NCBI GenBank assembly: GCA_963674825.1
Contig: OY771587.1
Span: 2,016,001 to 2,080,000 of the forward strand
Length of the DNA stretch: 64,000 nucleotides
Direction: 5' to 3'
DNA from: Candidatus Cloacimonadales bacterium
GTDB lineage: Bacteria; Cloacimonadota; Cloacimonadia; Cloacimonadales; JAIOQZ01
A program made the translations under genes and the position numbers. This document shows, piece by piece, positions 35,001-58,332 of this stretch (position 1 is its first letter; each line of letters starts with the position of its first letter). The notes under the pieces were generated by a model that ran no database searches, was not told the DNA's origin, and saw only the letters and a program-made list of their open reading frames with translations.

Positions 35001-35481
35001 AACTGACCGCAATGGCAATCCGTATTCATATATTACATTCGAGGACCTTTACGGTAAGTTCGAACTTGGTCTTTTCTCGGATGATTACGTGAGATTCCAT
35101 CATACAATCCACCCCGGCAAAGAATACCTCGTCGTTGGCAGAAGAAAAAACGGCAACGGCCAGGATGAGTCAAAATTAAGGATTTATCCGAAACGCATAA
35201 TTGCGCTCGAAGAGCTGCCCAGAGAAGCTGGAGAGCTCGAAATGCACCTCGAACAAGAAGGTGCTGGTAAGAACCTTGCAGAAATATTACTTGATCAAAA
35301 AGTGAAAAATCCGGGAAATGTCAAGATGCGGTTTTGCGTACATACGAAGAAGTTCAGAGAGCTGGTAATATCTGTGCCGGATTCGCTGACGTTCTTCCCG
35401 AGTGGAGAGTTTATGAAGAGTGTCGAACCATACCTGAAAAGAAAGCCATGCGTGGTTCTCGATTTTGAGAAGAGTCGATAG
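32026..35481 (+). CDS. dnaE: DNA polymerase III alpha subunit
   Basis: PHP motifs HLHNHT and TDHG; GRGSAAGS; PDIDIDF; KMDFLGL; YAFNKSH. Confidence 0.99.
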   Translation: MAFVHLHNHTQYSMLDGACRTDKIVGLAKQYEMPAVAMTDHGNMFGTIDFFMKAKKAGIKPIIGMEAYIVNGELEDPKTKNDHRHHLVLLVQNIAGYHNLMKLSSISFTDGFYYKPRISKSLLKKHSEGLICLSACLHGEIPYLLLEGKKDEALEAIEWYKGIFPDRFYIELMDHGLEDERKVKSRLIEIARETDTPMVVTNDCHYLKKEDAEAHDVLLCIQTGKSLGDPNRMRYETTQLYFKTEEEMRKLFPDVPEAYDNTVKIAETIDFDLPYKDFLFPKIDIPEEYKDSYEYFRALVYKGTEKRYSELTDEVKERIEFEIDVIHRMGYVDYFLIVKDFIDAARDRGIPVGPGRGSAAGSIVAYLLDITQLDPLEYGLLFERFLDLKRVGMPDIDIDFCAEGRGEVINYVIEKYGRNAVTQIVTFTTLGARSVIKDVARVLDIPAAEANLITKKMPLGPKVTIESSIKDSTEFAELMNSREDYRNVLKYSQVLEGLVRQIGVHAAGVVIGPGDLSDYVPLAVSSQKDGPQALLVQYEGKWLDDLKLLKMDFLGLKTLTIIHRAVSLIKDFKGVDVDIDNVSLDDEKAYELLSNGQTDGIFQFESAGMKKYLQELKPNVFADLVAMVALYRPGPMQFIDTFINRKHGREKVVYDHPLAEAILKETYGVTVYQEQVMQIAKVMAGFPSAEAGVLRKAISKKKRDMMEELHVKFRDGCVKNGVKAEVADKIWVDWEGFANYAFNKSHSACYAYIAYQTAWLKAHYPVEFMTAILSVEDDPAKIPYFLDECKKMRIEVIPPDINKSEEAFSVEDNKILFGLRGIKNVGSAAINAIVSERKKDGPFKTIFEFCTRVDTMAVNRSVIESLICAGAMDCLEGTRSQKVAVIEEALNHGNVVQQERNSAQINLFDVMSDTMKADEHEPQLPQNAPDWTLSYKLEQEKKYLGFYISGHPLMQHKPILELYANVNTRDFSSKENGGYIKIAGIATDIQVRTDRNGNPYSYITFEDLYGKFELGLFSDDYVRFHHTIHPGKEYLVVGRRKNGNGQDESKLRIYPKRIIALEELPREAGELEMHLEQEGAGKNLAEILLDQKVKNPGNVKMRFCVHTKKFRELVISVPDSLTFFPSGEFMKSVEPYLKRKPCVVLDFEKSR

Positions 35482-36601
35482 CAGGGTAATCCTGATCGTT
35501 GCGCTTTGGCTATCGAGCCTGGCGCTTGCTGCCTTGGCGTTGCAGCACGAGCATGTTGGCGATTCAAGCTATTTCACACTGTTTATACCCTACGAGAATC
35601 TGTATTTCCAGCCTCGTGACTCGGTATATTTCTGCAAAACAGAGATTGACCTAACTCTGCTCGGACAGGATAACAGGTCAATCTATCACAACCTTTCCAC
35701 TTTCAAGATCGAGATTCCGGACAACAGCCTCATACGCTACAGGGCTTACCCAATCGTTTTCCGTCTCGGGATTATCGACGAACCCATCGAGGCGTATCTC
35801 AAGATTACCAACTTACAACAGGGAACCCGGCAGCAGGAGACCTTCACTTTGACTCCACCCTATCCCGTACGCAATCAGACGGCCCCTCTTTATCTCTTTC
35901 AGAAAGGTGATAATCGCTTTGTGACACAATTTCCCTTCAACGGTGCGCTAGCGGATTCCGTGACGGTTGTCCAACACTTCGGGACGGTACCGGATAGCCT
36001 GAGCATCGTGGTGGAAGATCGCGTTGTTTGGAGATGGGACGACCCCTCGAACAATCTTTCGGTGACGCTTCCATTGGAAAATCGTATCTATCATGGGATC
36101 AGTGTTCGATCATTTTATGGAAGGCAGTCCGTGAGCAGCCATGACCACGAGCGATTCTTCTCCGAGTACGACGCACGATATACGCCCGAGGAGCAGATCC
36201 GACAGATGGAGATCATCATGCTCAGCGCCGATATACAGCAGGCGCGCATGGTGCATAACAGAGATCTCGAAGAATACATCGACTTATACTGGAAGCGAAA
36301 CGATCCAACACCGGATACGGCATACAATGAAAATTACGAGATATTCATTCACCGGATAATGGAGACTGATAAGCGATTCAGCCTGAAAGGATTCATACCT
36401 GGCTGGAAAACAGATCAGGGCAAGATTCTGATAAAATATGGAGAACCGGAGGAAGAATTCAAGGAACAATTCCCGACCGAAGTGCTTTATCCCTATATAA
36501 TCTGGTATTATTACACGATCGACAAAAGATTTGTCTTCTACGACAAGAAGGGGTTTGGATATTATGAACTTGCTGAAAAATGGTACATCGACCGCGATTA
36601 A
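35465..36601 (+). CDS. GWxTD domain-containing secreted protein
   Basis: Signal peptide; YWKRNDPTPDT and GWKTDQG..LIKYGEP motifs; TTG start overlaps dnaE. Confidence 0.88.
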   Translation: MRRVDSRVILIVALWLSSLALAALALQHEHVGDSSYFTLFIPYENLYFQPRDSVYFCKTEIDLTLLGQDNRSIYHNLSTFKIEIPDNSLIRYRAYPIVFRLGIIDEPIEAYLKITNLQQGTRQQETFTLTPPYPVRNQTAPLYLFQKGDNRFVTQFPFNGALADSVTVVQHFGTVPDSLSIVVEDRVVWRWDDPSNNLSVTLPLENRIYHGISVRSFYGRQSVSSHDHERFFSEYDARYTPEEQIRQMEIIMLSADIQQARMVHNRDLEEYIDLYWKRNDPTPDTAYNENYEIFIHRIMETDKRFSLKGFIPGWKTDQGKILIKYGEPEEEFKEQFPTEVLYPYIIWYYYTIDKRFVFYDKKGFGYYELAEKWYIDRD

Positions 36602-37931
36602 ATTCGCTCTGCTGACAATTGTATTGCTTGTCAGTGTTGCCGCCAATGCGGATGAATTGAATCTGTATATCACAACGACCCGTTTTATGGACGATGCTGG
36701 TAACACCATCTTCGATATCGTTTACAAAATCCCATACAACCAGCTCGAATTCGTTCAGGTAGAAGATCGTTTCGAGGCGAACATCCGTATCGCAGCAGTG
36801 ATCGAACAGGGTGAGAAGCGCGTGCTGTGGAAACAGTTCGACAACCCGGTAGTCACCTTCGATCGTCAGAAGATGGCATCCAGCGGTGAATACTACATGG
36901 ACAAGATTTCTCTTACGCTGAGCAAAGAGATGCTCATCGAGCTCAACTTCATCGATTCGACGTCGAATAAAACAGCGCAATACAGAAAAGACCTCAAGCT
37001 GTTACAGGCTGGAACGAATCTGAGCGACATCGAGTTTTCCACGCAGGTAATGGTTGATACCGAACACCGGTTCGTTAAATTCTGCCGTGGCGATTCGCTC
37101 TACTTCGTGTCGCCCGATCGAATTTTCAATCTGCAGAACTATTCGGCGATGTATCTCTATTATGAGATTATGAATCTTCAGCCATCCGATCAGGGAATAT
37201 CAAACTACGAAGAAACAGTCACTGTCTTTAAAGGCGAACTAAACTATCGCCAGACAACGAATAACGAATACGTTGAAGGCACGAAGAAGAATGTTACACG
37301 CAGAATCGACCTGTCCAGTTATAAATCGGGTAAATACGAGATCGAAGTAAAGATATGGGATATGATTTCCGGAAGAGAAACGTCCCGTCGCGAATCGTTC
37401 ATCGTACGCGCCAGTGATAAGACAAAATACCGTTTCTTCACCGATATTGAGGATGAATTCCTGCTTATCAAGACCTTCCTACCGGTTACAGAGGCAAAGG
37501 TCTGGGACACGCTGAGTCCGTCTGCTAAAGATCAATACATCGATACATTCTGGCGGGTGAACGATCCGGATCCGGATACTGACGAGAACGAGTTTTTCAA
37601 GCTTGTCCAGGAGCGTGTAAGCTTTGCAAACGAGCATTATTCGCGGTTTGACGATGGCTGGAAGAGCGATCGTGGCCGGATTTACATCCGCAATGGATCT
37701 CCTGCAGAAAGATATACTGATTTCACCGATCCCTCACAGACTCGCTTTGCCAGCAAGGAATACCTGATCTGGAAATTCGATCAGCCCGAACATCGCGTTT
37801 ATTTGTTCATTGACAACATGAACAACGGCGATTTCCGGCTGGTGTATGTTGATAACGACGACAAAGAGCAGACCCTTCCATCATGGCAGAAATACTTCGG
37901 AAATGATTTCGACGAATCACTCCTGCAGTAA
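36531..37931 (+). CDS. GWxTD domain-containing secreted protein
   Basis: Signal peptide; FWRVNDPDPDT and GWKSDRGRIYIRNGSP motifs; true start probably about 36564. Confidence 0.88.
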   Translation: MSSTTRRGLDIMNLLKNGTSTAIKFALLTIVLLVSVAANADELNLYITTTRFMDDAGNTIFDIVYKIPYNQLEFVQVEDRFEANIRIAAVIEQGEKRVLWKQFDNPVVTFDRQKMASSGEYYMDKISLTLSKEMLIELNFIDSTSNKTAQYRKDLKLLQAGTNLSDIEFSTQVMVDTEHRFVKFCRGDSLYFVSPDRIFNLQNYSAMYLYYEIMNLQPSDQGISNYEETVTVFKGELNYRQTTNNEYVEGTKKNVTRRIDLSSYKSGKYEIEVKIWDMISGRETSRRESFIVRASDKTKYRFFTDIEDEFLLIKTFLPVTEAKVWDTLSPSAKDQYIDTFWRVNDPDPDTDENEFFKLVQERVSFANEHYSRFDDGWKSDRGRIYIRNGSPAERYTDFTDPSQTRFASKEYLIWKFDQPEHRVYLFIDNMNNGDFRLVYVDNDDKEQTLPSWQKYFGNDFDESLLQ

Positions 37932-38291: not shown

Positions 38292-38428
38292 GGAGTAAAA
38301 AAATAACTTGACTATCCGCTGTCAAATTTTAAAAGTTATGTTGGTTCAATGGGAGAAACCCGCATGGGGTTTTCCTGTAAAGACTTAGAGATTATAAAAG
38401 TGAATAAATGAATCCAGGAGGTTATGGA

Positions 38429-39469
38429 ATGAAAGCAAGAAATCTCGTTTTCTTGACTGTGTTGGTTTTTCTTTTAGCCGGTAGCCTGAATGCTGTGCCC
38501 TACACATGCCTCGGCTATATGAAGGTGCCCACTGGCTACGTGCTTCCTCATCTTATGGGTGAGATCTCCATCGTTGGTTACGCTGGTCCCGGCGTACAGG
38601 AATATGATACCGTGAAAAATTCATCCGGTGTTGATATCCCCGTCAGCAAAGACGCTGATATGCAGTTCACATATTCTGCAGCGATTAACTATGGCTTTTT
38701 TGATCGCGTAGATCTGGGACTGGTTTACGCTGGCGTGGGCGACGGTATGTTCTATGCAAACATGAAAGCCCAGCTTATTTACGAATCGGAAACGATGCCC
38801 GCTGTTGCAGTCGGTGTGGACAACATGTTCTCCGAATTCAAGGACAGCTATCGCGATGACGATTCGGAAGCTTACACAGATCGTCTCGACTTCGGTTATG
38901 CTGATCCGGACGACTACACTGCCTGGTCCCCCTATATTGTGCTTTCGAAAGCCACGATCCTTCGCGGCGTGTCTGTATTCGAACAGCTCGAGACCGTGAT
39001 TACCGTTGGTTGGGGCCAGAATCGCTTCGAAGGTAACAAGGCAATCTCCAAGCGTCTCGGTGGTATGTTCGGCGCTGTTGAATTCAAGCCGCTTCCTTAC
39101 CTCTCAGTTATCGGTGAAATGGACGGCTACAACTTCAACGCCACACTGAATTTTATCTATCAGAATTACGAAGCTCGCGTGGGTCTCTATCGTATCGAAG
39201 AATACGGACAGCGTGACCCCAAGATCGCACTTAACCTGAAATACACGCTCGATGCGTTCTCGGAAGTGAAAGCGGCAGGAAAGAACAAACGCTACAGCCC
39301 GACTGCTGAGATTGTTCCTGATCGCCGTGGTACCCGTGTGATTCGCAAGAGTAACGAATCATCCACCGGCGAGAACCCCCTTCTTGAAGAACTGGAAGCT
39401 ATTCGTGCAAAACGTCGCCAAGCGGAGAAAGAACTGGAAGAAATAAGAAAAGTGCTTGAAGAAGAGTAA
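38429..39469 (+). CDS. YjbH-like outer-membrane beta-barrel with C-terminal coiled coil
   Basis: Signal peptide; G...VPTGYVL, PAVAVG, GMFGAVE motifs; amphipathic strands; GGAGG RBS. Confidence 0.75.
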   Translation: MKARNLVFLTVLVFLLAGSLNAVPYTCLGYMKVPTGYVLPHLMGEISIVGYAGPGVQEYDTVKNSSGVDIPVSKDADMQFTYSAAINYGFFDRVDLGLVYAGVGDGMFYANMKAQLIYESETMPAVAVGVDNMFSEFKDSYRDDDSEAYTDRLDFGYADPDDYTAWSPYIVLSKATILRGVSVFEQLETVITVGWGQNRFEGNKAISKRLGGMFGAVEFKPLPYLSVIGEMDGYNFNATLNFIYQNYEARVGLYRIEEYGQRDPKIALNLKYTLDAFSEVKAAGKNKRYSPTAEIVPDRRGTRVIRKSNESSTGENPLLEELEAIRAKRRQAEKELEEIRKVLEEE

Positions 39470-39471
39470 TT

Positions 39472-41505
39472 ATGAAAAATCATATTCTCCTGATTGCGAT
39501 ACTTCTTGCATTGCTTTTGTGTCTTCCCGCTCTGCATGCGCAGGACGTTTACGATGATGAAGAAGTGCCTGTTGAGCTCCTCGTACAAGATGAGCAAGAG
39601 GCACTGGAAGACCTTTACAGCGAGATAGGACATCTTCGGGAGCTTGCCACTCGCAAGAAAGAACTCCGGACAGCTAGTGAGAACGGTAACAACAACGCCG
39701 TGCGTGCAGCCTTCATTAGTGACAGACAAACACTTCAAACCTTCCTGGACGAAGGTGATTACGCTGGTGCGCTGAATAAGTACATCGATCTCGCAATGAT
39801 CTACCAGGGCTTCGGTTTTCTGGATGATCAGCTTCTTTATTTCGAGGGTGTTATATACTACGGATACGGTCGCAAGGTACGTGCTCAAAGTATCTTCGAG
39901 CGTATGGTCGGAAAATACCCCGATTCAATCTATTTCGCTGAAGCAATTGGATATCTTGAAGACCTGTATATTCACTCCGGTATGGATGAGGAGTTTCTTG
40001 CTGTTGCAGCGAGAAATCCGAATCAGGATGCTCCAAAGCACATCTACTGGATGGGACAGGCCAATTATAACGTCGGCAATCTCGAAAATGCCGAAAACAT
40101 GTTTACAACTCTGACCGACGATCCTGAATATGGCTTCCGCAGCAAATGCATGCTGAGCATGATCGGATATTACAACTTCGGTCTCGAGTACGCCATCGAA
40201 AGCTTTCTTAATTTGATGATCGACAACCAGCCCGATACGCCGTACTTCGATTTTGTCTATCTGTCACTGGCACGCCTTTATCAGGAGCGTCAGGATTACG
40301 ATAAAGCGCAGTACTGCTACGATCAATATCTGGCGATCACCGAACGCCCTATGACGGATGAGCTCCGCTATGAAATGGTTGTGCTCTTCCTCAAGGTTGG
40401 GGATTTCGAAACGGCGAATCAATACTTGCGCGAAATCGTGGATAATTCCACTTCTGCCGCATATTTCACCTCGGCAAGCTATCTTCTTACGATCGTGAAC
40501 ATGGAAATGGGAAACCTGGACGAGGCACGTGAGAATATTAACGAAGCACTCGCAACGACATCTCAGATCCTCGAGGCGATCAATATCAAGAATGAGCTCA
40601 TGAATCGGCATCAAAGCCTGATGAATCAGTATAAAAATGCCGTTTCTTCCGAGATGAAAACAAACCTCCTGAACCAGATGCGCAGGGTGAACGAGCAGAT
40701 TATCGCGACAAGTAATGTTCTCGAGAACCTCAGCGTTGGTCTTACCGAAGAGGACTATCTGCGTCTTCAGATTTACGAAGAGGAACTTGCTTATTACAAC
40801 GAAACCTTCGAGCGGATCAATCTTCTGACCAAGATTGCAAACACGAAGTCGAATAAGAAAGTTCCAAAACGTATCGACGACAAGGTGGAAATCCTCGACG
40901 AATACGCGATCCGTATCAACACCCTACAGTTACTCTCAAATATGCAGCAGCTGAACCCGGGCGAATACGAGATGGCTTATGTGATCGCAAGCGAAACTTA
41001 CGATTCGCAGAAAACCCTTGATAAATGGCGTGAAATCAAACAGGAAGCTCAGGCTAAAGGTATGATGGATGTAGTCGACAAGGCTAACCGTGCGATTCAA
41101 CTGCTGGAAGAGAATATTAGTTCTCTTGCGACAGTTTCGATGTATACATTCGGGGAGTTACGCACCAATACCGATATCCAGCAGGAACTTGCAGCCGAGA
41201 TCGAGAATATCGATCGCCTGAAGAACGAGTTCCAGGATATTCGCGAGCAAACTGTCCGCGAATACAATAAGAAACTCGCGGTCAGGTTGAAACGACTTGA
41301 CAACCTCCTGGTCGAAGAAAACAGCTCGATGAAACAACGGTACGAAAACTTCCTGACATCACTTGAAGCCGGCGTAGAAGACACTTCAGCCAAATACCGC
41401 TATACGCTCGTCGATATTCTTTATCGGGAATCGATGTTATTGGATCAGGAATATAGAGACAAACAAGCCGAGTACAAACAAAGTTTGAATAACTCCGGGG
41501 AATAG
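39472..41505 (+). CDS. Secreted TPR and coiled-coil protein (GltC-like)
   Basis: Signal peptide; multiple TPR-like repeats, then long helical region. Confidence 0.8.
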   Translation: MKNHILLIAILLALLLCLPALHAQDVYDDEEVPVELLVQDEQEALEDLYSEIGHLRELATRKKELRTASENGNNNAVRAAFISDRQTLQTFLDEGDYAGALNKYIDLAMIYQGFGFLDDQLLYFEGVIYYGYGRKVRAQSIFERMVGKYPDSIYFAEAIGYLEDLYIHSGMDEEFLAVAARNPNQDAPKHIYWMGQANYNVGNLENAENMFTTLTDDPEYGFRSKCMLSMIGYYNFGLEYAIESFLNLMIDNQPDTPYFDFVYLSLARLYQERQDYDKAQYCYDQYLAITERPMTDELRYEMVVLFLKVGDFETANQYLREIVDNSTSAAYFTSASYLLTIVNMEMGNLDEARENINEALATTSQILEAINIKNELMNRHQSLMNQYKNAVSSEMKTNLLNQMRRVNEQIIATSNVLENLSVGLTEEDYLRLQIYEEELAYYNETFERINLLTKIANTKSNKKVPKRIDDKVEILDEYAIRINTLQLLSNMQQLNPGEYEMAYVIASETYDSQKTLDKWREIKQEAQAKGMMDVVDKANRAIQLLEENISSLATVSMYTFGELRTNTDIQQELAAEIENIDRLKNEFQDIREQTVREYNKKLAVRLKRLDNLLVEENSSMKQRYENFLTSLEAGVEDTSAKYRYTLVDILYRESMLLDQEYRDKQAEYKQSLNNSGE

Positions 41506-41509
41506 TTAC

Positions 41510-44500
41510 ATGAAAACCATGAAACCAAGCGTATTATGGATTTTTTGTGTCCTTTTCACGCTGTCGATAGGTTCTCTTCTGAGCCTTTCACTGGACGAGC
41601 TCGAAAGGGAACACCAGAAATTGCAGGATTTCAAACGGGACGTATATAACCAGATTCAAACCGATATCCGGGAGAATCCGAACTCACCCGATATTCCATA
41701 TCTTTATTTCAAGCTCGCACAATTGAGCTCAGAAATCGAAGGTATTGAAAATCCAGCAAAGACAGCAAATTTCTACAAAAAAGTCCTTGAACTCGATCCA
41801 ACCTTCCCCGACAAAGACGTGGTCTTGTACAATCTCGCCTATTTCTCGTATGAAGCTGCGAAAAAAGCTCGTGACGAAAAACGGGAAAGAAATATTGATC
41901 TGGCTATGAACTGGCCCGATAGTTACCGACTTTCAGAAGATCAGCCGATGGTCAAGACCGCGATTGATTCCTATACGGAAATCTATCTCAAATACCTTGA
42001 TTCCATCTATAACTCTGAAGCGCTTTTCAGGCTTGGTAACATCTATTATGAGCTTGGATTCGATGCGCGTAAAAGCGCGAAATATTACACTGTTGCATCG
42101 AAATTCTTCGATATTCTTGCCCGTAGAGACGGCGATCCCTACCAGAACTTCGGTATCTTCTACCGCGGCTGGGTTAACTTCACAAAGGGTGACTATCAGG
42201 ATGCGATCAACGATTTCTCTCAAATCCTTAAGAAGATCGAAGATGGCTCTTCCACTGAAGATCTGAAGACCTATTTCGAAAGCGAAGCGATCGAAAACAT
42301 TGCATATAGTCTTATCGAAGCGGACAGCACGGACTTTGAACAACGTTCGAGAGCTGCCTCCTTCGCACGCGACTCCTTTAATCAGCTTGTTGATGAGCAA
42401 GTTGGAAAGCGAATCCTCAATGAAGCAATCGACCTGAAGCTTCAGCTCAATGCTCCGATGCAGGCAGTTGACCTCTTCAAGGCATATGTTAATCTGTATC
42501 CTATGAGCCTGGATGCACCTTCCTACGTCGATTCGATCATGACGATCTACAAGCGTTACCCGAATCGTCTTCGCGAAGCAGATATCTATCAGGCTGTGAA
42601 GAAAGAACAGGAATTCCTGGTACAGAACTACTGTTATGGCTGCGAATGGTACACAGCAAATGAAGCGAAACCTGGTTTCGTGGATCAGCTGGTTGTCGTT
42701 CGTAACGCGTACAAGTTCCTCGCTCCGGATTACCTGATTGCTTTCCAGAAAAGTAACAATGAAGCCGATTTCCAGCGCTATCGCGAATTGTTTGAGAACT
42801 ATCGCAAGTATCCGCAGTTCGCGCAGATGGATATCGACGAAGGCGAAGGTGACTGGTTCTTCGAATATGAGATTAGTACAGCTGCCGGTTATCTTACGCT
42901 GGCCGATCAGGCTCAGGATCCAGGCAAATATCTCCTCGCACATGAACAATTGATCGATATTAACACGGAATTCCCTGAGAATGCGCGTTATATCGCGAAC
43001 GAGACAAACGCCTTCTATTGTATTGAACAGGTATACAATATCCTTGATCCTACGATCGCCGATATGCCATTCACCAGTCCGGTCGATAGCCTCGTTATCA
43101 CCAAGCCGGTACTTGATTCGCTGTACGTTGCAGCTTCGACTCGTTATGAGCAAACCCTTGTTTCAGACGAATATCAAGCTGCAGAAAAAGATTCCGACCT
43201 GCAGAAGATCATCTATCGTCGTGCAGAGTTGCGCTACGAAAATGAAGATCTCGATCTTGCATACACGGATTTTGAAAAGCTTCTCAATTTGCAGATCAAC
43301 GACGATCTTCGCAAGATCGCGTTCAGCAGACTGGCAAGTATCAACGAAACCCGCGGTGATTACACCATGGCGATCGATTTCTACAACCAGGCCGCCAATT
43401 TTGCAAAAACGGATGCAGAACGCGCCGATATCAAGACAAACATCGCAGCTGCTTACCAGGCCGATGCCGAACAACTCAAGGGCATGGGTAACTACCAGCA
43501 GGCTGCCGAGAAGTATATCAGACTTTCCGACGAGATTGCCTACAGGGATTCCACACAGTGGATCGCTTTCAGGGTCAAGGCAATCGACATGTATAATAAG
43601 ATTCCGCAATACGACATGAGCATTGGACTGCTCAAGGAGATCGCGAAATCTCAGAACAACATCGACAAGGTTCTCGGTTACTATGTTCGTGCGTGGAATA
43701 TCGCAGACTCTCTGATGCTCGACCCGCAATACGGTGAGCAGCTTCGCTGGGAATTTGTCGATATGTATCCACGCAGCAACCAGGCTTATAATATCCAGCT
43801 CGATATCATCAAGCGTTACGAAGAAGACGTGAATACGAAAGAAGCTGCAGCGCAGATGTACCTCGACCTGCATGCCAAAGCCGGTAATATCGATCTCGGC
43901 GAAGACAAGATCGAAGACCTTATGCTGAAAGCAATCTCGATTTATCGCGATCTGAACAACGACGCGAAACTGATCGAATTGATGCTAGCCTTTGAATCGA
44001 CATATCCAGCGCACCCGGCGGCGAACGAATTCCTTATCGAAGTCGCCAGAATGTACAAAAACATGGGCGATCAGGCTAAGTACAAGGATATGGCCCTTTA
44101 CATTAACCGCAAGGATCCTTCGATCCCGTTCCTCGAGTCTATTGCGAGCGAAGAGCTGAAGGCCATCTATATCGATGTCAATACGCTTTTCGAAGCAAAG
44201 GCTTACGATTCGATGAACGCGAAGATCCAGGAATACAAAGACCTCGAGAATAACTATAAGAAGGAAGGACTCGATCTTCGCATCGATTCCGTTTACGATC
44301 GGTTTGACTATGTCGAGAATTACATCGTCTGGGAGAAGAGCTATGATGGCATCATCCAGGAACTGAACGACTATCTCGAAAAGTCTCCGAACGATCTGGT
44401 TCTGATTGGTGGACCGACCAAGTGGAAAACAAAGGTCGTCCCGCGTATGAAGACCCTGGTCAAGAACACAAACGCTCTGTACGATAAGGTTCTCGATGTC

Positions 44501-45820
44501 ATTGCCAACGGTAAAGAGTATGAAATCAGCGATATGCAGACAACCAAAGCTCTTTATCTGATTGCGCAGGTGTACGAATATAGCTACACCTCGTTGATTA
44601 CGCAGCTGAAAAAATACCTTGAAGAAACTACCGAAGCGCAGGAATACCGTGACGCTGGTCCCGCTATGTACCAGCAGTTCTCGAGTGCAATTGCCGCGGC
44701 TTCGAACGAATATCGTTCTGAACTCCAGAAGAAATATCTTCAGACCTATTTGACGATCGTCACCAACTTCACTGAAAAGACTGGTTACTCCGATGAGTAC
44801 ACCGAACTGGCGATGGAAAAACTGGTAGAAGAAGGCATCCGTAAACCGAAAGAGTACCAGCAGGTCGCAATGGATAATTCCTGGATGACCAACACAATGG
44901 GAATCGATATCAATGACCCGACGTCGATTTCTTCGGCTACCTGGTCTCCGATTGCGACGATTACCAGCGCAACCTATGCTGATAAGGGTGTGATCGAGTT
45001 CAGTGAAGTTTCTCCGACATACGACGTGCTTTACAACAGTACGCTCAACGCTGAAATCCAGCCTGAACTCTTGACTGTTGACTATTTCAGCAATCAGCCA
45101 GTTCAGGTATATGTGAACAACAGTCCGGTTCAGAACCAACCGAGCCTTGTCGATACGCTAATCGTCGATGGCTTGAACATCCCGCACTATTCGGTCGTAA
45201 CCAGCCGTAACCTTACGCAGGGGCTGAACACGATCGGATTCTATGTGACACACGGCGATTCGCTCAGTACAACATTGTTCTCGGCAAACTACCAGGCACA
45301 GTACGACAAGGCCGATCTCGATTTCTTCCGCACAACCGAAGAACGTGATATCGTGTCGGATTACTCCTGGTACACAACGCGCAAAGAGATTGATCCTGCT
45401 ACGACAGCTCCAGATTCGACCTGGATGCTTGCCGGAAAGGGTAATTTCAGTTTCTATCGCGTGCAGATCCAGATGATGGATAACACGAATGCGATTGAGA
45501 TCTGGGCGCCTGAAGTCGATACGTCGAAAGTCAATTCTGTTTACTTCATGAAGACGTTCGACATCGATACGGAAGTCATTGAAGGATCAATGTCTTTCAT
45601 CGCTGAGAAATACGGTTCTGTCTGGATCAATGGCGTAAATATCTTCGATTCGATGGAGATAATGCTTGACCAACAACTGAGCCAGGTACTACCTTACCAA
45701 ATGCCACTGGACGCTTCCTACTTCGTTCAGGGCCGAAACACGATCCTTATCCGTGTCGATGGAGACAAAAAATACAAGGGTCTTATGTTCGACATGAATA
45801 TGTTCGTCAAAAAACCGTAG
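41510..45820 (+). CDS. Large secreted TPR protein with C-terminal beta-sandwich domains (GltD-like)
   Basis: Signal peptide; many TPRs (e.g. SEALFRLGNIYY); C-terminal VWING...GRNTILIRV beta domain. Confidence 0.8.
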   Translation: MKTMKPSVLWIFCVLFTLSIGSLLSLSLDELEREHQKLQDFKRDVYNQIQTDIRENPNSPDIPYLYFKLAQLSSEIEGIENPAKTANFYKKVLELDPTFPDKDVVLYNLAYFSYEAAKKARDEKRERNIDLAMNWPDSYRLSEDQPMVKTAIDSYTEIYLKYLDSIYNSEALFRLGNIYYELGFDARKSAKYYTVASKFFDILARRDGDPYQNFGIFYRGWVNFTKGDYQDAINDFSQILKKIEDGSSTEDLKTYFESEAIENIAYSLIEADSTDFEQRSRAASFARDSFNQLVDEQVGKRILNEAIDLKLQLNAPMQAVDLFKAYVNLYPMSLDAPSYVDSIMTIYKRYPNRLREADIYQAVKKEQEFLVQNYCYGCEWYTANEAKPGFVDQLVVVRNAYKFLAPDYLIAFQKSNNEADFQRYRELFENYRKYPQFAQMDIDEGEGDWFFEYEISTAAGYLTLADQAQDPGKYLLAHEQLIDINTEFPENARYIANETNAFYCIEQVYNILDPTIADMPFTSPVDSLVITKPVLDSLYVAASTRYEQTLVSDEYQAAEKDSDLQKIIYRRAELRYENEDLDLAYTDFEKLLNLQINDDLRKIAFSRLASINETRGDYTMAIDFYNQAANFAKTDAERADIKTNIAAAYQADAEQLKGMGNYQQAAEKYIRLSDEIAYRDSTQWIAFRVKAIDMYNKIPQYDMSIGLLKEIAKSQNNIDKVLGYYVRAWNIADSLMLDPQYGEQLRWEFVDMYPRSNQAYNIQLDIIKRYEEDVNTKEAAAQMYLDLHAKAGNIDLGEDKIEDLMLKAISIYRDLNNDAKLIELMLAFESTYPAHPAANEFLIEVARMYKNMGDQAKYKDMALYINRKDPSIPFLESIASEELKAIYIDVNTLFEAKAYDSMNAKIQEYKDLENNYKKEGLDLRIDSVYDRFDYVENYIVWEKSYDGIIQELNDYLEKSPNDLVLIGGPTKWKTKVVPRMKTLVKNTNALYDKVLDVIANGKEYEISDMQTTKALYLIAQVYEYSYTSLITQLKKYLEETTEAQEYRDAGPAMYQQFSSAIAAASNEYRSELQKKYLQTYLTIVTNFTEKTGYSDEYTELAMEKLVEEGIRKPKEYQQVAMDNSWMTNTMGIDINDPTSISSATWSPIATITSATYADKGVIEFSEVSPTYDVLYNSTLNAEIQPELLTVDYFSNQPVQVYVNNSPVQNQPSLVDTLIVDGLNIPHYSVVTSRNLTQGLNTIGFYVTHGDSLSTTLFSANYQAQYDKADLDFFRTTEERDIVSDYSWYTTRKEIDPATTAPDSTWMLAGKGNFSFYRVQIQMMDNTNAIEIWAPEVDTSKVNSVYFMKTFDIDTEVIEGSMSFIAEKYGSVWINGVNIFDSMEIMLDQQLSQVLPYQMPLDASYFVQGRNTILIRVDGDKKYKGLMFDMNMFVKKP

Positions 45821-45838
45821 GGTTGAGAGAGGTACACC

Positions 45839-46147
45839 ATGAGAAAGGTACTCGCTATTGCGCTTCTGTTGATCGGTGTTGGGCTGTTTGCACAGGATGC
45901 TACTCAGGCTGAAACTCAGGAGCAACCTCAGGCACAAACACAAACTCAAACTCAAGCGACCGAAGATGTGAGAGCTCGCTTTCAAAACGTGGAAGTGTTT
46001 CGCGATACGGAAGAGAGCCAGATACAGGTTGATGACCTTAAACCGGGTCAGTCCGCAATGAAAGAGCGTCAGGAATCGAAAACGACTGCTGGCGCGAAAA
46101 GAATCTATCTTGAACGTTTTCAGACATCAAATAAGTTATTATATTGA
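45839..46147 (+). CDS. Small secreted protein (GltF/CglF-like)
   Basis: Signal peptide; Gln/Thr-rich linker; IQVDDLKP motif; position in the operon. Confidence 0.6.
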   Translation: MRKVLAIALLLIGVGLFAQDATQAETQEQPQAQTQTQTQATEDVRARFQNVEVFRDTEESQIQVDDLKPGQSAMKERQESKTTAGAKRIYLERFQTSNKLLY

Positions 46148-46164
46148 TAAACAGGAGGTTTAGA

Positions 46165-46923
46165 ATGTCTTCGTTCTTCAGAAAAATATGCTTCATGGGA
46201 GCGTTGCTTGTTCTGACAATTGGTCTGGTGGCACAGGATGCAGAGGTTCGCGGAGGCGAGCAAATCGACTACGCAGCTATGTTTACCGGTGTTCCGGGCG
46301 TATTCATGTACCTGATTCTGTTACTTGGCGTTGTGAGCGTTGTGCTTGCTATCGTTAAGCTTTTCCGCCTTGCTATCAAGGAAAAATTCGATGCTCAGAG
46401 CTTCTATCTTAAACTGAAAGGCTATATCAAGCATGAGCAGTACGATGAAGCAATCAAGGTTTGCAAAAACTTCAAGAACAAAACCATGGGATTCATCTTC
46501 TGGAACGGTCTTGTTTCCTTCAACGATGCTCGCAGCATTGGAAAATCAGGAAGCGAACTCCGCCAGGTTCTTCAGAACTCTTTCGACGAAGCCGGTATGC
46601 AGAAGATACCGGAAGTTTCCGCTGGTCTTCACTGGTTCGACCTCATTGCGCAGGTTGCAACGCTGCTTGGACTTCTCGGAACTATCTTCGGTCTGATCTT
46701 TGCGTTCAACGCGCTGTCAGGTGCGGCTGAAGCTGATAAGACACGTCTTCTTACCAAAGGTATCGGTACCGCTATGGGTACGACCGGTCTTGGACTGATG
46801 GTCGCTATTCCTACCCTTCTCATCAAGGGTTATCTGCAAGGACGTGCAGAACGCATTACCGACCAGATCGACGAATTCAGTGTGAAGACCATCAATACGA
46901 TCAACTATACGATAAAGGATTAG
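46165..46923 (+). CDS. MotA/TolQ/ExbB proton channel protein (AglR-like)
   Basis: ATLLGLLGTIFGLI and GIGTAMGTTGLGLMVAIP motifs; AGGAGG RBS. Confidence 0.93.
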   Translation: MSSFFRKICFMGALLVLTIGLVAQDAEVRGGEQIDYAAMFTGVPGVFMYLILLLGVVSVVLAIVKLFRLAIKEKFDAQSFYLKLKGYIKHEQYDEAIKVCKNFKNKTMGFIFWNGLVSFNDARSIGKSGSELRQVLQNSFDEAGMQKIPEVSAGLHWFDLIAQVATLLGLLGTIFGLIFAFNALSGAAEADKTRLLTKGIGTAMGTTGLGLMVAIPTLLIKGYLQGRAERITDQIDEFSVKTINTINYTIKD

Positions 46924-46927
46924 TGCC

Positions 46928-47443
46928 ATGGCATATCGTCCATCGGAATCGCGAAAAGGCGGAAAATGGGAAAGCAAGGAACTGAACCTGATTCCTATCA
47001 TGAATCTGTTCATTGTTGTTATTCCCATGCTTCTGACCATTATCGTGATGACGCATATGGCGATGATCGAAATATCTCTGCCTACGCAGGCCGGTGCTAC
47101 TGACGCACAGGATACTGAAGAGAAGGAAGTGGAAGCAAAGCTTCTCGCGATAACCCCCGATGGGTTCGAACTCTTCACGCCGGGCGGCGAGGAAGATGGC
47201 ATTAATTTGCCTATTCTGAATTCCGAAGCAACGGATGCGATCCAGAAGTACGATTTTTATCGTCTCGATCAGGAAATCGCCAAGCTTAAAAAAGACAATG
47301 AAGACCTGAAGGCTATCGGTGTAATGCCCGATCCTCGCGTGTCGTTCGAAACGCTTCTTACCACCATTGACATTGCCAAAAGCAATGGTTTCGAGGTGGA
47401 CTACAAGAAGTTCGAACAATACGGCTTGAAAAAGGTCCAGTAG
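46928..47443 (+). CDS. ExbD/TolR family protein 1 (AglQ-like)
   Basis: ELNLIPIMNLFIVVIPMLL TM helix; ISLP; PD..VSFETLLTTID. Confidence 0.85.
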   Translation: MAYRPSESRKGGKWESKELNLIPIMNLFIVVIPMLLTIIVMTHMAMIEISLPTQAGATDAQDTEEKEVEAKLLAITPDGFELFTPGGEEDGINLPILNSEATDAIQKYDFYRLDQEIAKLKKDNEDLKAIGVMPDPRVSFETLLTTIDIAKSNGFEVDYKKFEQYGLKKVQ

Positions 47444-47452
47444 GAGTTCCAC

Positions 47453-48040
47453 ATGGCAAAACGAATATCCTATACGAAAGTAAAAAGAAAGATATCCGGT
47501 ACCAGCGGACGCGAGGCTAAGAAGAAGCACCCGAAATCGAAAGAGATCAACATCACATCGTTGATCGACATTCTTACGATTCTTCTGGTCTTCCTCATCA
47601 AGAACGTCTCGATGGAAGCTCAGAAGGTGCAGCAGCCAGAAGGAATGAAACTGCCCTCGACATCAACCAAAGAAGCTTTGATCGAAAACGGTAATACCGT
47701 GCTCATCAAGGTGTATGATAACCAGATTCTTTTCGGTACATCGAACACGAAGGTGATCCCGGATGAGAAGATGGTCGGTTACGAAGGTAGAGAGCTGGAA
47801 GTATTCATGAACGACGAGGATACACGTACGGCTATGAAGGGACTTCTGCAGGCGCAAGCAAAGGAAATCAAGGCTGCGAATGCCGAAGCGATTCCAGCAA
47901 TCTTGATTCAGGCGGACGACAAAGTGTTATGTCGGTATATTACTGAGATAATCGTGTTATGTGCAAACTCGGAGTTCTCACACATTTACTTCTCCAGTAT
48001 GCACGATCCGCAAATCAAGGAGCACTTCATTAAATCCTAA
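47453..48040 (+). CDS. ExbD/TolR family protein 2 (AglS-like)
   Basis: EINITSLIDILTILLVFLIK; MKLPST; ILIQADDKV. Confidence 0.9.
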   Translation: MAKRISYTKVKRKISGTSGREAKKKHPKSKEINITSLIDILTILLVFLIKNVSMEAQKVQQPEGMKLPSTSTKEALIENGNTVLIKVYDNQILFGTSNTKVIPDEKMVGYEGRELEVFMNDEDTRTAMKGLLQAQAKEIKAANAEAIPAILIQADDKVLCRYITEIIVLCANSEFSHIYFSSMHDPQIKEHFIKS

Positions 48041-48060
48041 GTTTCCAGGGAGTAGTCTTT

Positions 48061-49506
48061 ATGGGTAATAAAATACTAAATTTGAAACTGCTGTATATGG
48101 GAAAGCCTCTCAGCTATGTTTCTCAGGGCAACGGATTTTCCAAGTCCTTCGAGGTTGGTTCTGATCCGCATTTGTTCTGGCAGATTCTGGATGAGAAATT
48201 CCCAAGTAAGTTCAAATTGCTTACGAAGAAGGGAGAAAACTTTGTCCTGCATCTCAACAAGGGCATGAACCTCTCCGTCCAGCGTGGCGATGAGAACTTG
48301 AATATGGATAACCTGAAGCAACAGCGACTGCTCAAAGGGAACAACCTGATGCTGGATGAACGTACAAGCGGAACTGTCGGCTTGAACAAAGACTACCAGA
48401 TCCAGTACAGCTTCCAGACACCGAGACCGCAGGTTCTGTCTCAGGCTGAAATCGCGATGATTCGCGAGTTCAACCGCAAACCGCCTGCAACTTCGGAACA
48501 GAAGTTTACCAAATGGTTCCTGATTATCAGTATGCTGATTACAGTCGTCGGTCTTACTACATTCAACCTTACCTATAGACCCAAACAGGTCGATCGCTCG
48601 ATCGTGGATCTCTATCAGCAGCGTGAACTCGCGACTCAGGTAACTTATGAAGTACCTCAGGCTGAAGAGGGTCCCACTGCAGATGCTTATGGTGTTGGGC
48701 AGGTTGACAGGGAAGCTGGTACGACAGAAGAACAGGCTCAGGAAATCGTTCAGGAAGCTCAGCAAAGAACAGTTGAGGACATGAGAAACGCACTCGGTCT
48801 TGGTAGCTTCGATGTTACCGGTGGTGGCGGAAGCCTTGATGATACCGGTATCGGTCAGGATGTGATCCTCGAAGTCAACCAGGCTACCGACATCGTTGCA
48901 GCCGGCCCGGCAACGGGTGCGAGAAAGGCTGCTGCTGGTGCTGCGATTGCTCAGTTCGATACCAAATCAGCTAAAGCTTCTGAGATGACCAGTGGGGCTG
49001 GTGGACTCGACGCGATCCTTTCCAAAGACGCTATCAACGTCGGCGGTGCCGGCGGAACATTTGAAGCTGTTGACCTGGATGCCGTTGGTGCTTCCGGTGG
49101 ACAGATTCAAAAGGTTGTCATTACTGGATCAGCGCAGTTCGAGAGTATCAAAGCAGCTCGCTATAGTGGACTTCGTACGGTTCGTGCTCAGGATATCGAG
49201 ACAGCCGATCTTGCTCCAGCAGATAAGAGCGTTTATGTGAACATCCGTAACTACGTGAAGGCTTTCGAGCCGCAGATTACGCAGGCATTCCGCCGCGAAT
49301 CCGCAATCATTGATATGTACGGTTCACTTCAGATCACGCTTTATCTTAGCGAAGGCAAGGTTGAAGGCGCAGAGATTTCCAAAGTCGGAAACAGCTATTT
49401 CACGGATGGCTTCCTTCAGAAGATCCATGACGATGTCATCATGAAATGGAAGTTCCCGGTTAAAAAGACGCTCGTTTACGAGTGGCGTATGAACTTCATC
49501 AAATAA
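48061..49506 (+). CDS. PglI/GltG-like bitopic protein with TonB-C-like (AgmX/PglI) C-terminal domain
   Basis: Cytoplasmic beta domain; single TM helix; Gly/Ala-rich linker; C-terminal IRNYV...GSLQITL...GKV...KWKFP. Confidence 0.75.
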   Translation: MGNKILNLKLLYMGKPLSYVSQGNGFSKSFEVGSDPHLFWQILDEKFPSKFKLLTKKGENFVLHLNKGMNLSVQRGDENLNMDNLKQQRLLKGNNLMLDERTSGTVGLNKDYQIQYSFQTPRPQVLSQAEIAMIREFNRKPPATSEQKFTKWFLIISMLITVVGLTTFNLTYRPKQVDRSIVDLYQQRELATQVTYEVPQAEEGPTADAYGVGQVDREAGTTEEQAQEIVQEAQQRTVEDMRNALGLGSFDVTGGGGSLDDTGIGQDVILEVNQATDIVAAGPATGARKAAAGAAIAQFDTKSAKASEMTSGAGGLDAILSKDAINVGGAGGTFEAVDLDAVGASGGQIQKVVITGSAQFESIKAARYSGLRTVRAQDIETADLAPADKSVYVNIRNYVKAFEPQITQAFRRESAIIDMYGSLQITLYLSEGKVEGAEISKVGNSYFTDGFLQKIHDDVIMKWKFPVKKTLVYEWRMNFIK

Positions 49507-49525
49507 GAGCGTAAGCTATATGATT

Positions 49526-49556
49526 AAAGCCCCTGGTTTCAGGGGCTTTTTTTTTT
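49526..49556 (+). terminator. Rho-independent terminator
   Basis: AAAGCCCCTG-GTTT-CAGGGGCTTT plus T run; closes the motor operon. Confidence 0.93.
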
Positions 49557-49603
49557 GTGTAAACCTCTGGACAATGAATGCGGAATGAATAAATCTGCCT
49601 GAT

Positions 49604-55197: not shown

Positions 55198-55206
55198 AAT
55201 GACCCC

Positions 55207-56238: not shown

Positions 56239-56261
56239 AGTAATATCTCCTGCGTGCTCTT

Positions 56262-58276: not shown

Positions 58277-58332
58277 CGTAACTCCTTTGTATTTCGTTGT
58301 CGTTTCATTATTCATATATTATACGATAATTC

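Follow-up and report, generated by a model that had tools for sequence, protein, structure and literature searches.

The closest described relative of the operon analysed in this study is the Agl-Glt core complex, defined by Luciano et al. in 2011 (PMC3169522) as the Group B genes aglR, aglQ, aglS, gltC, gltD, gltE and gltG. The sections of that paper used here state that the core complex alone is unlikely to drive motility, and they include the Fibrobacter succinogenes cluster Fisuc_1892-1897 as a core cluster with no GltE listed; Cloacimonadota, KSB1 and a plug pair of Asn and Asp are absent from these sections. In the cited part of a further report (PMC6851124), the OmpA-family protein of F. 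succinogenes and the first TPR protein are reported to belong to a single complex, and growth on cellulose induces the operon 1.2–1.7-fold, a response that the authors interpret as uptake; the FSU tags of that report were matched to the Fisuc tags by gene order, from which we infer that the same operon is meant.

In Myxococcus xanthus, the Agl-Glt, Nfs and G4 (MXAN_1919-1923) systems share with the present operon an AglR/Q/S-type motor and GltD-like and probably GltC-like scaffolds. Agl-Glt and Nfs have been portrayed as machineries for surface transport that act on polysaccharides, and GltF has been described as TonB-box-like (PMC9389320). Since 2011 it has been an open question what the Agl-Glt core does, and a 2022 review left the matter of an AglQ/AglS heterodimer unsettled; the operon described here narrows both questions. 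It is a GltE-less variant of the core complex and not a new category of machine, and its function is proposed from sequence, trees and models. Among open-licence papers and preprints, no literature was found that covers this operon in either Cloacimonadota or KSB1 or that mentions the Asn/Asp plug pair. Three points go beyond the print that we found, namely the near phylum-wide operon, the Asn plug at the AglQ position and the motor-less derivatives.

Organization of the operon and its kinship with the core complex

The window analysed here is a 64,000-nt stretch of contig OY771587.1 (GCA_963674825.1) from a Candidatus Cloacimonadales bacterium, and all operon positions are given within it. 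Eight co-oriented open reading frames, g1 to g8, were all confirmed at 38429..49506 (+), and their tight spacing, as described in the initial annotation, was found again, with gaps of 2, 4, 18, -4, 4, 9 and 20 nt from g1 to g8. Pfam assigned TPR domains to g2 and g3, MotA_ExbB to g5, and ExbD to both g6 and g7. The terminator proposed for the operon end was likewise found as an intrinsic terminator-like hairpin at 49526..49557 (+); its 10-bp stem contains 6 G-C pairs, and stem and T run together take up 49526-49549. As a hairpin scan returned 17 such sites compared with 15.7 in shuffles, i.e., no excess, the support for an operon terminator comes from the strength of this hairpin and its position 20 nt past the g8 stop. 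In agreement with the initial annotation, the operon contains neither a TonB-dependent receptor nor TolB or Pal; Pfam revealed no peptidoglycan-binding domain in it, and no neighbouring genes for cargo, glycans or adhesins were recognised.

The proposed kinship with Agl-Glt was borne out, as the motor falls in Glt-linked clades and g8, g3 and g2 match GltG-, GltD- and GltC-like proteins, respectively. For these comparisons, NCBIfam models and metagenomic loci served as stand-ins for the M. xanthus Agl/Glt sequences, AglR included. The gene order is that of the core complex (probably GltC-like TPR, GltD-like TPR, small gene, ExbB, ExbD, ExbD, GltG-like), and the metagenomic locus L123 carries the same run of small gene, ExbB, ExbD, ExbD and GltG-like gene. 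The initial annotation also proposed a complete machine of this class that it did not know to be described in this lineage; this is overstated, since the class was already set out as the non-gliding core complex in the sections of PMC3169522 cited above. The parts of the operon, comprising an AglR-type channel, two plugs, a transducer, scaffolds, a small protein and a barrel, are inherited as one unit.

In the cited parts of the Fibrobacter literature, the two TPR proteins measure 746 and 1292 aa, near the sizes of g2 and g3 (677 and 1436 aa). In contrast, the Fibrobacter GltG-like protein has 308 aa compared with the 481 aa of g8 with its FHA-fold domain, and the Fibrobacter cluster opens with the OmpA-family protein, whereas the Cloacimonadota operon has a YjbH-N/FapF-like barrel with a helical tail. 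Core complexes are patchy, whereas the Cloacimonadota operon is near phylum-wide at a fixed site, with g2-g3 fusions and motor-less derivatives. M. xanthus also needs GltE, GltI, GltJ, GltK, CglB, GltA/B/H and MglA, none of which was recognised in the operon; the GltA/B/H, GltK, CglB and GltI/GltJ/AglZ families were not named among the NCBIfam matches of g1-g7.

The motor, its single aspartate and the transducer

The channel subunit g5 (46144..46923, +) belongs to the ExbB/TolQ family (PF01618, E 6e-23), and its best NCBIfam and PDB sequence match is TolQ. The ExbB tree compared it with KSB1-type, Myxococcota-like (L122, L123) and Vibrio-plasmid core ExbBs and 11 other ExbB/TolQ rows, and g5 grouped with the Glt-linked ExbBs, in the AglR clade, with a support of 100/96 (91/84 in the first tree). 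The Cloacimonadota stem in this tree is long. The ExbD tree, which also included 13 Ton/Tol-type ExbDs, contained a position-1 clade with g6 (46928..47443, +; AglQ position) supported by 97/97 and a position-2 clade with g7 (47453..48040, +; AglS position) supported by 99/96, each of 16 rows; the outside loci were found with alignment subsets of 8 and 3, and this sample is biased to KSB1-type and G4-type loci. None of the motor subunits nested among the sampled Ton or Tol proteins; such nesting was what the initial annotation had regarded as adverse to its proposal.

Concerning the channel, the columns of E. coli ExbB T148 and T181 are kept in 13/13 g5 sequences and that of E176 in 0/13. At the column of E. 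coli ExbD D25, g7 retains the aspartate (Asp39) in 39/39 Cloacimonadota and 40/40 KSB1-type sequences, as do 13/13 control ExbD/TolR proteins, whereas g6 has Asn in its place (Asn26), again in 39/39 and 40/40. In M. xanthus, AglQ and AglS alike carry the aspartate, and the AglQ D28N substitution abolishes activity, paralysing both gliding and sporulation; AglQ D28 was equated with the g6 Asn column by its description in papers and not by alignment with the M. xanthus sequence. Since an Asn plug is not expected to work as a homodimer and Asn is found in 79/79 sequences from two deep lineages, an obligate heterodimer with one ion-binding site is predicted, and such a one-site plug is not covered by current two-site models of 5:2 motors. 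The mere presence of two ExbDs was rejected as diagnostic of Agl, as this genome has a separate, ordinary Ton operon with its own TonB receptor and likewise two ExbDs.

The last gene, g8 (48061..49506, +; 481 aa), encodes a GltG-like force transducer with an FHA fold, a membrane helix and a TonB-C-like end. In the AF2 model, the FHA-fold domain (residues 1–120) is followed by the membrane helix (about 149–167), a Gly-rich disordered linker and a TonB-C-like/AgmX-PglI end (about 385–480), and FHA structures fill the Foldseek list (top VIA: Z 9.4, rmsd 2.5, 91 aligned). HHalign matched g8 to GltG-like proteins at 99.2% over the full length, a GltG-like profile returned g8 as its sole match in the genome (E 6e-12), and the nearest outside relatives of g8 match GltG positions of about 202–650. 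With family models, g8 itself matched the AgmX/PglI C-terminal model weakly (E 0.012, below the cut-off); NF033768 was matched by 31 of the 41 g8 members and gliding_GltG by one (8.8e-12), all scores being below the curated cut-off, and the GltJ model was weakly matched by two members through the shared C-terminal domain. A cluster look-up of 10 distant g8 relatives gave no names. The M. xanthus GltG-type transducer similarly combines FHA by a membrane helix with a TonB-C-like end; carrying only one FHA domain, g8 resembles the short G4-type protein and not the two-FHA GltG.

These data bear on the reading of the locus as a standard Ton or Tol motor operon to which TPR proteins have been added as accessories. 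Ton and Tol-Pal draw on the same motor families and likewise pull with a TonB-C-like domain carried by a long periplasmic linker, g5-g7 belong to the ExbB/ExbD families with TolQ as the leading match of g5, and 15/41 g8 members match TonB_C weakly. However, the trees part g5-g7 from the 11 sampled Ton/Tol-type ExbBs and the 13 ExbDs, and the operon has a one-aspartate heteromeric plug pair, where every control ExbD/TolR has Asp, together with giant TPR scaffolds. Further, g8 has a cytoplasmic FHA fold, and only 3/41 members have His in the membrane helix, where TonB and TolA use the SHLS motif; no receptor, TolB or Pal is linked. This reading is largely refuted and retains hardly any probability.

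The true homology of the motor, transducer and scaffolds to Agl-Glt-type proteins, and the fact that Agl also powers the non-motility surface transport of Nfs, would fit a gliding or Nfs-like processive surface-translocation machine. Gliding, a use suggested in the initial annotation, is nevertheless unlikely, and a machine of either kind very improbable: MglA was found in 0/61 Cloacimonadota genomes (E 1e-10, one query; controls 5/5 positive) and in this genome not even at 0.01, the operon has no GltE, and the AglQ-position channel site bears the residue that paralyses gliding and sporulation in M. xanthus, where both plugs have the aspartate. Moreover, the G4 cluster, whose protein g8 resembles, is dispensable for gliding, the core alone is held unlikely to drive motility in the cited sections of PMC3169522, and this genome has flagellin and PilT genes.

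Scaffold proteins, small protein and outer-membrane barrel

The first scaffold protein, g2 (39472..41505, +; 677 aa), combines TPR and helical periplasmic regions and is probably GltC-like, as it aligned in register with GltC-like proteins (HHalign 97.9%, 92-367 vs 91-380). TPRs cross-match, and g2 reached 95.4% with GltD-like and 65% with GltE-like proteins. The gliding_GltC model was not among the best 25 of 32 families for 20 g2 members; a KSB1 protein at the g2 place matches it with E 7e-10. A lipobox was found in 0/29 g2 sequences. The second, g3 (41510..45820, +; 1436 aa), is a periplasmic TPR scaffold with an additional C-terminal region and is GltD-like by profile comparison: it is colinear with GltD-position proteins (HHalign 99.7%, E 2e-26, 44-857 vs 132-923), compared with 13.9% for GltC-like and 42.7% for GltE-like proteins. 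These GltD-like reference proteins were named from their size and their place between GltC-like and GltE-like genes, and no GltD model was among the library matches. The two genes are fused in 17/36 loci, which argues for one scaffold. GltE was searched for within the operon, where no ORF lies between g3 and g4 and where g2 and g3 match GltE-like proteins poorly.

The small secreted protein g4 (45839..46147, +; 102 aa) has a conserved Pro and a C-terminal helix in an alignment of 37 members. It is a candidate GltF by position and size; profile comparison with GltF-like proteins gave no significant match, at 0.2% untrimmed and 0.7% trimmed, and CglF was not among the best 25 of 55 families for the 37 members. 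The KSB1 small protein matches CglF/GltF-like proteins at 98%; g4 matches this KSB1 protein at 71% untrimmed and at 0.2% and 0.7% trimmed, like reversed controls.

The operon begins with g1 (38429..39469, +; 346 aa), whose ORF opens at 38408 and whose ATG at 38429 directly follows an AGGAGG. It is predicted to be a 12-stranded outer-membrane barrel with a FapF/COG4313-like fold, from the YjbH/GfcD N-terminal-barrel family. The AF2 model (pLDDT 73.8) is a single barrel of 12 strands, matching 4rl8 (VIA: Z 15.6, rmsd 3.7, 191 aligned) and FapF 5o65 (VIA: Z 15.3, rmsd 3.2, 189 aligned), and g1 lies in the ESM Atlas YjbH cluster (0.94). PF06082 was precomputed on 5/64 g1 homologues, the same five exceeding the Pfam cut-off; the homologues match about 158–282 of its 658 positions, and g1 itself has no Pfam match, being below PF06082. 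The outer-membrane barrel of the initial annotation is supported; in the fold and family searches its matches are FapF/COG4313 and the YjbH N-terminal barrel, which lend no support to a likeness to GltA/B/H. GfcD/YjbH and FapF/COG4313 likewise have 12 strands, and the N-terminal half of GfcD has been reported as FapF-like; the missing of GfcD from the fold-search matches is meaningless because there is no solved GfcD structure. The two-barrel YjbH/GfcD exporter layout was not found, since g1 has neither the middle domain nor the C-terminal barrel, ending instead in a conserved periplasmic helix (residues 317-345). The barrel that occupies the corresponding place in KSB1-type operons has this helix as well (95.7%); the local alignment covers the helix only, and orthology of the two barrels is not claimed, as the barrel part reached about 2%. 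A complex prediction for g2 (24-677) and g1 (22-346), run without controls, gave a score of 0.00 and a mark of 0.32, which count neither way.

The barrel brings in a close rival to the tethering role discussed below, namely energised transport, in which the motor would use g8, g4 and the TPR scaffold to pull on a plug in g1 for the import of oligomers (peptide or oligosaccharide) or the export of a polypeptide or polymer; this would be TonB-like, except that a scaffold and a 12-stranded channel would take the place of the 22-stranded receptor. In structure, g1 best matches channels and secretion pores (COG4313, FapF, KdgM), and its alignments to COG4313 and FapF start at residues 29-31, before the first barrel strand, which fits a plug. 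The TonB-box-like description of GltF, the polysaccharide-acting transport ascribed to Agl-Glt/Nfs and, in the part of PMC6851124 cited, the rise of the Fibrobacter operon on cellulose point the same way, and unplugging would need no more than a single stroke per cycle. Against this, no substrate-specific genes lie near the operon, which is single-copy at a housekeeping site, the genome has its separate Ton operon and receptor, and motor-less lineages keep the barrel and scaffold. A common barrel fold shows no function, and the likeness to YjbH was rejected as a sign of polysaccharide export because g1 lacks the C-terminal barrel, the proposed GfcD pore. Transport of this kind is considered rather unlikely.

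Distribution of the operon and its proposed role

The synteny check proposed in the initial annotation was carried out across Cloacimonadota: g1-g8 occur in identical order in 36/40 fetched loci, so the arrangement is not due to chance, and of the remaining four, two are contig ends, one is an isolated second copy of g8 and one has no g1. The g5 orthologue is present in 112/151 genomes (103/139 of those of high quality), with more than one match in only two genomes. Of the 36 full loci, 31 have yraN upstream and 26 include priA in the stretch. These data establish a near phylum-wide, mostly single-copy operon at a fixed site among housekeeping genes.

Tentatively, our preferred interpretation is an ion-driven housekeeping machine built from the Agl-Glt core, whose stroke would pull on the outer membrane for tethering or remodelling. 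By analogy with 5:2 motors (PMC9389320) and the Agl-Glt model (PMC11761067), five g5 subunits would surround one g6 and one g7, and g8 would bind to the g5 ring by its FHA domain and membrane helix. With ions flowing past the sole aspartate, the motor may then deliver one power stroke per cycle, not continuous alternating rotation, and this stroke would reel in the g8 linker while its TonB-C-like end grips g4 and g3; g2 would connect the scaffold with the tail that the g1 barrel extends into the periplasm. As the output, an outer-membrane anchor would be put under tension, a task like that of Tol-Pal in a phylum where no Pal is recognisable.

This tethering or remodelling role is favoured by the single copy at a housekeeping site in the 112 genomes, together with the result for Pal, which was found above the family cut-off in 0/151 genomes (controls positive), a count that leaves out a few short OmpA-domain frames of about 200–240 aa; TolB was also not found above the cut-off in this genome, to which the TolB/TolA search was confined. 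The retention of g1, g3 and g4 in motor-less operons, the g2-g3 fusions, the C-terminal helix of g1 shared with the KSB1-type barrel, the recognition of no cargo, glycan or adhesin genes nearby, and, as far as the cited part of PMC6851124 goes, the Fibrobacter complex of OmpA-family and first TPR proteins argue in the same direction. Against it, the operon has no peptidoglycan-binding domain, which leaves the candidate anchor without an assigned gene, and GltF, the proposed TonB-box element, is matched by g4 in position only. Ion conduction through a plug pair with one aspartate is putative, the Asp-to-Asn substitution abolishes activity in M. xanthus, and the cellulose response of the Fibrobacter operon was read as uptake in the cited part of that report. 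The groups poor in the g5 orthologue, f7 (0/6 genomes), f12 (0/6), f13 (2/13) and f4 (18/31), are also without Pal above the cut-off, which counts against this role and indicates that the operon is not indispensable.

A bolder and rather doubtful extension is that the ancestral Agl-type motor was an obligately asymmetric 5:1:1 stator with one H+/Na+ aspartate, a reciprocating ratchet and not a two-site rotary engine, doing the Tol-Pal job through a TPR scaffold and small barrel in Cloacimonadota and related phyla, and that processive gliding in Myxococcota began once a second aspartate was gained or kept by the plug at the AglQ position. If true, Ton and Tol would be joined by a third widespread envelope-motor class, and the evolution of gliding could be approached through one residue.

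The motor-less derivatives bear on how much of the operon depends on the motor. In four genomes, the three motor genes are gone, g1, g3 and g4 are retained, g2 is intact in two, and g8 is shortened to a signal-peptide protein of 255-258 aa with the TonB-C-like end only, which indicates that the FHA domain and membrane helix are tied to the motor and that the barrel-scaffold part is structural without it. The near phylum-wide retention without MglA or Pal, together with these natural deletions, points away from motility, and the deletions offer comparative material for tracing the real output. They would also suit a passive barrel-TPR scaffold, an assembly or anchoring platform of the outer membrane in which a droppable one-aspartate motor only modulates, repositions or senses tension, as would the replacement of Asp by Asn in all position-1 plugs of the two phyla examined. 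Such a platform is improbable, however, as the motor is kept in most of the genomes surveyed and no variation was seen at Asp39 of g7 or at the two channel threonines of g5. In one further genome, which this passive platform would also accommodate, g1 is left alone before priA.

Operon architecture and kinship to the Agl-Glt core

The operon g1 to g8 (38429-49506, + strand) is an Agl-Glt core that lacks GltE and differs at its outer-membrane end, and we regard its kinship to the published seven-gene core (aglR, aglQ, aglS, gltC, gltD, gltE, and gltG; PMC3169522) as highly probable. The reading of open reading frames confirmed the tightly spaced, co-oriented run of eight genes with a terminator reported in the initial annotation: intergenic distances ranged from -4 to 20 nt, and 20 nt past the g8 stop codon lies a hairpin with a 10-bp stem and a T run. 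Pfam matches identified TPRs in g2 and g3, MotA_ExbB in g5, and ExbD in g6 and g7; the barrel gene g1 and the GltG-like gene g8 had no Pfam match, and g8 matched the AgmX/PglI C-terminal model under that model's cut-off. The G+C content was 47% in the operon versus 49.6% in the genome. The taxon-labelled named homologues of g1, g3, and g5 all came from Cloacimonadota or taxa inside it, supporting the lineage guessed earlier.

In the g8 model, confidently predicted N- and C-terminal domains are separated by one membrane helix and a long disordered linker; the N-terminal domain matched FHA structures in two fold searches with middling scores (Z up to 9.4). A g8 profile search of 1.8 billion proteins recovered full-length relatives beyond the Cloacimonadota-like matches, and 22 of the 31 outside relatives scanned matched the gliding_GltG model. 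Many of these matches cover model positions from about 202 to 650, which in the layout of PMC11761067 correspond to GltG minus its first FHA domain. In profile-profile comparisons, the proposed homology to Glt-type proteins was borne out for g3, colinear with GltD-position proteins (99.7%), and for g8 against GltG-like proteins (99.2%). It was less specific for g2, which matched GltC-like proteins best and in register (97.9%) with GltD-like proteins close at 95.4%. The small secreted protein g4 may be GltF-like: it occupies the place of GltF-like genes, and the small protein of the KSB1-type operons, found outside Cloacimonadota, matched GltF-like proteins at 98%, but g4's own match vanished after trimming.

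Using subsets of the g8 relatives, 43 genome loci and 32 metagenome loci were gathered outside the phylum. The genome loci, whose titles name KSB1, Caldithrix/Calditrichota, and other groups, repeat the Cloacimonadota order, with ExbB in 41/43, each ExbD in 40/43, a TPR protein of ~970 aa in 34, the small protein in 30, and an upstream protein of ~340 aa in 27. One metagenome locus (L126) showed successive matches to the GltC, GltE, CglF, and GltG models, all under cut-off; it adjoins mglB-mglA-like genes, and its gene sizes agree with those that Table S3 of PMC3169522 gives for the G4 cluster.

Several side observations concern the same domains and surroundings. In the window's own genome (G000), a 188-aa protein (C1:3298624-3299190, -) consists almost wholly of a TonB-C-like domain of the g8 type, preceded by a lipoprotein-like start, and similar short frames were found in many relatives; in other proteins (P0165, P0176, and P0239), fusions join a C-terminal domain of this type to a Ser/Thr kinase, an SBBP beta-propeller, or a caspase-like domain. 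A Glt-core-like run (L160: a large protein, two small proteins, ExbB, two ExbDs, and a TonB-like protein) lies on the mobilisable Vibrio alginolyticus plasmid pMBL96 (NZ_CP013488.1). Two GWxTD-domain genes (window 35465-37931, +) have dnaE on one side and yraN on the other. Most Cloacimonadota loci keep one or both of them ahead of the operon, and GWxTD genes also adjoin three KSB1-type loci (L101, L109, and L119); a link to the envelope machine is possible. The translations at 52135-58315 (-), comprising a regulator, an outer-membrane channel, a periplasmic adaptor, and a large transporter, look like an ordinary RND efflux operon.

Motor phylogeny and plug asymmetry

The phylogeny placed the motor apart from the Ton/Tol rows and with Glt-linked motors. 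In the ExbB tree of 27 rows, which left out every second in-group row and the MotA of an earlier 33-row tree, the g5 orthologues, KSB1-type sequences, two Glt-linked Myxococcota-like sequences, and the Vibrio-plasmid core were on one side (100/96), with E. coli TolQ and ExbB, the two other ExbBs of G000, and seven further outgroup rows on the far side; the same split received 91/84 in the earlier tree. In the ExbD tree of 45 rows, first-position plugs grouped at 97/97 and second-position plugs separately at 99/96. Both trees are thinly sampled, with some long branches and without M. xanthus rows. With this separation, an ordinary Ton/Tol operon is an extremely improbable reading.

The presence of two ExbD genes was rejected as proof of Agl kinship, since a TonB-receptor operon of G000 also carries two. 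This ordinary-looking Ton operon (C1:2356369-2368210, +) encodes a receptor-like protein of 1031 aa, ExbB, two Asp-bearing ExbDs, and TonB; downstream lie genes for large secreted proteins and for a presumably PorV-like protein of 345 aa.

The two plugs differ at the position aligned with E. coli ExbD D25, where g6, in the first (AglQ) position, has Asn in 39/39 Cloacimonadota and 40/40 KSB1-type sequences, and g7, in the second (AglS) position, has Asp in 39/39 and 40/40, respectively; owing to kinship among the sequences, these counts represent conservation in two lineages and not 79 independent events. Three further Cloacimonadota loci showed the same pattern as judged by eye. Among other first plugs, the Vibrio-plasmid one has Ser and the Myxococcota-like ones have one Asn and one Asp; the Ton/Tol-type controls have Asp in 13/13. 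The g5 protein retains the ExbB T148 and T181 columns, not E176, all of which we take to be residues with a role in the channel. M. xanthus AglQ and AglS each carry the aspartate, homo- versus heterodimer being described as unsettled (PMC9389320), and AglQ D28N abolished proton conductance, gliding, and sporulation (PMC3858216).

Conservation and motor-less derivatives in Cloacimonadota

A g8 match was found in 114/151 Cloacimonadota genomes, a g1 profile match in 127/151 (including weak matches near E 1e-4), and a g5 match at E 1e-38 in 112/151, almost always in one copy. In this survey, no motor was found in families f7 (0/6) and f12 (0/6), or in 11/13 f13 and 13/31 f4 genomes. Among 40 loci around g8 matches, hand-picked for family spread and contig size, 36 kept the g1-to-g8 order; of the other four, two lay at contig ends, one carried a second g8 copy alone, and one lacked g1. 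The 36 full loci had yraN upstream in 31 and priA inside the fetched stretch in 26. The pattern looks like vertical inheritance at a fixed site. The genes g2 and g3 form a single ORF (1927-2149 aa) in 17/36 loci; the unfused-g2 profile matched the N-terminal part of nine fusions, and a widened profile matched seven of the remainder weakly and one not at all. As for duplications, G093 (L172) has g1 in tandem, G004 (L175, L061) and G091 (L176, L068) have extra g1 copies away from the operon, and G065 (L173, L054) has two operon copies, one with an unrelated 943-aa gene at its head.

A strong g1 match without any g5 was seen in some f4 genomes. In G098, G042, G125, and G122 (L167-L170), the three motor genes were absent at the locus and not found elsewhere in the genome; g1, g3, and g4 are kept, g2 is intact in two of the four, and g8 is replaced by a protein of 255-258 aa that begins like a signal peptide and has no part of g8 other than the TonB-C-like end. 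In G010 (L166), g1 alone is left, ahead of priA. The four genomes fall in two genera within a single family and could stem from one event. A passive scaffold in which the motor is dispensable is an improbable reading of the operon.

The sequences, trees, and models show which parts are present, their predicted topology, the clades they belong to, the plug pair with its single aspartate, and inheritance of the genes together. By analogy with the published Agl-Glt model, the motor would be 5:1:1, g8 would dock on it through the FHA domain and helix, and force would pass from g8 to g4 and g3/g2 and then to the barrel tail. The joint loss of FHA domain, helix, and motor in the motor-less genomes fits such docking.

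Possible output of the machine

The initial annotation proposed gliding among the uses of the machine, which fared poorly. MglA was detected in 0/61 Cloacimonadota genomes versus 5/5 genomes carrying KSB1-type loci, and G000 encodes flagellins, a flagellar export and motor block, and PilT (C1:687423-691219, 783360-796128, and 3035023-3036042). According to PMC3169522, the seven-gene core occurs in non-gliding bacteria and is unlikely to drive motility unaided, Fibrobacter has a core copy without GltE, and a G4 gltD mutant glides normally. Gliding or Nfs-like translocation is very unlikely.

The claim of a complete envelope machine new to the lineage stood in part: the core class had been published (PMC3169522), and neither the Cloacimonadota spread, nor the invariant pairing of an Asn plug with an Asp plug, nor the operons without a motor were found in the literature listings searched or in the papers cited here. 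PMC12204202 treats Ton, Tol, and vWA transducers, and the terms GltG, AgmX, and Cloacimon- do not occur in its searched text; the searched parts of PMC5317091 do not describe the operon.

We tentatively favour outer-membrane tethering or remodelling as the output. Pal was found at cut-off in 0/151 Cloacimonadota genomes, sub-threshold matches being OmpA-type domains mostly within long frames; TolB stayed below cut-off throughout G000, and a CpoB-like protein is present there.

Energised transport through g1 is a close, somewhat less probable rival. The Fibrobacter operon, with an OmpA-family gene at its head, was 1.2-1.7-fold up on cellulose, its OmpA and first TPR protein were in the same complex, and its authors proposed cellodextrin uptake (PMC6851124). 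The AlphaFold2 model of g1 is a 12-stranded barrel with a C-terminal helix (pLDDT 73.8), with COG4313 (Z 15.6), FapF (Z 15.3), and KdgM (tied, Z 15.2) as top structural matches; ESM Atlas and Pfam matches on five homologues tie it to YjbH. In GfcD/YjbH, a 12-stranded N-terminal barrel resembling FapF is accompanied by a C-terminal barrel, and the latter has been proposed to be the polysaccharide pore (PMC11494523, PMC9603273), whereas g1 has the N-terminal-type barrel only; with the KSB1 barrel it shares only the C-terminal helix. Another small protein resembling YjbH (265 aa, PF06082 E 0.025) is encoded elsewhere in G000, with a 637-aa gene after it (C1:1081206-1083929, +).
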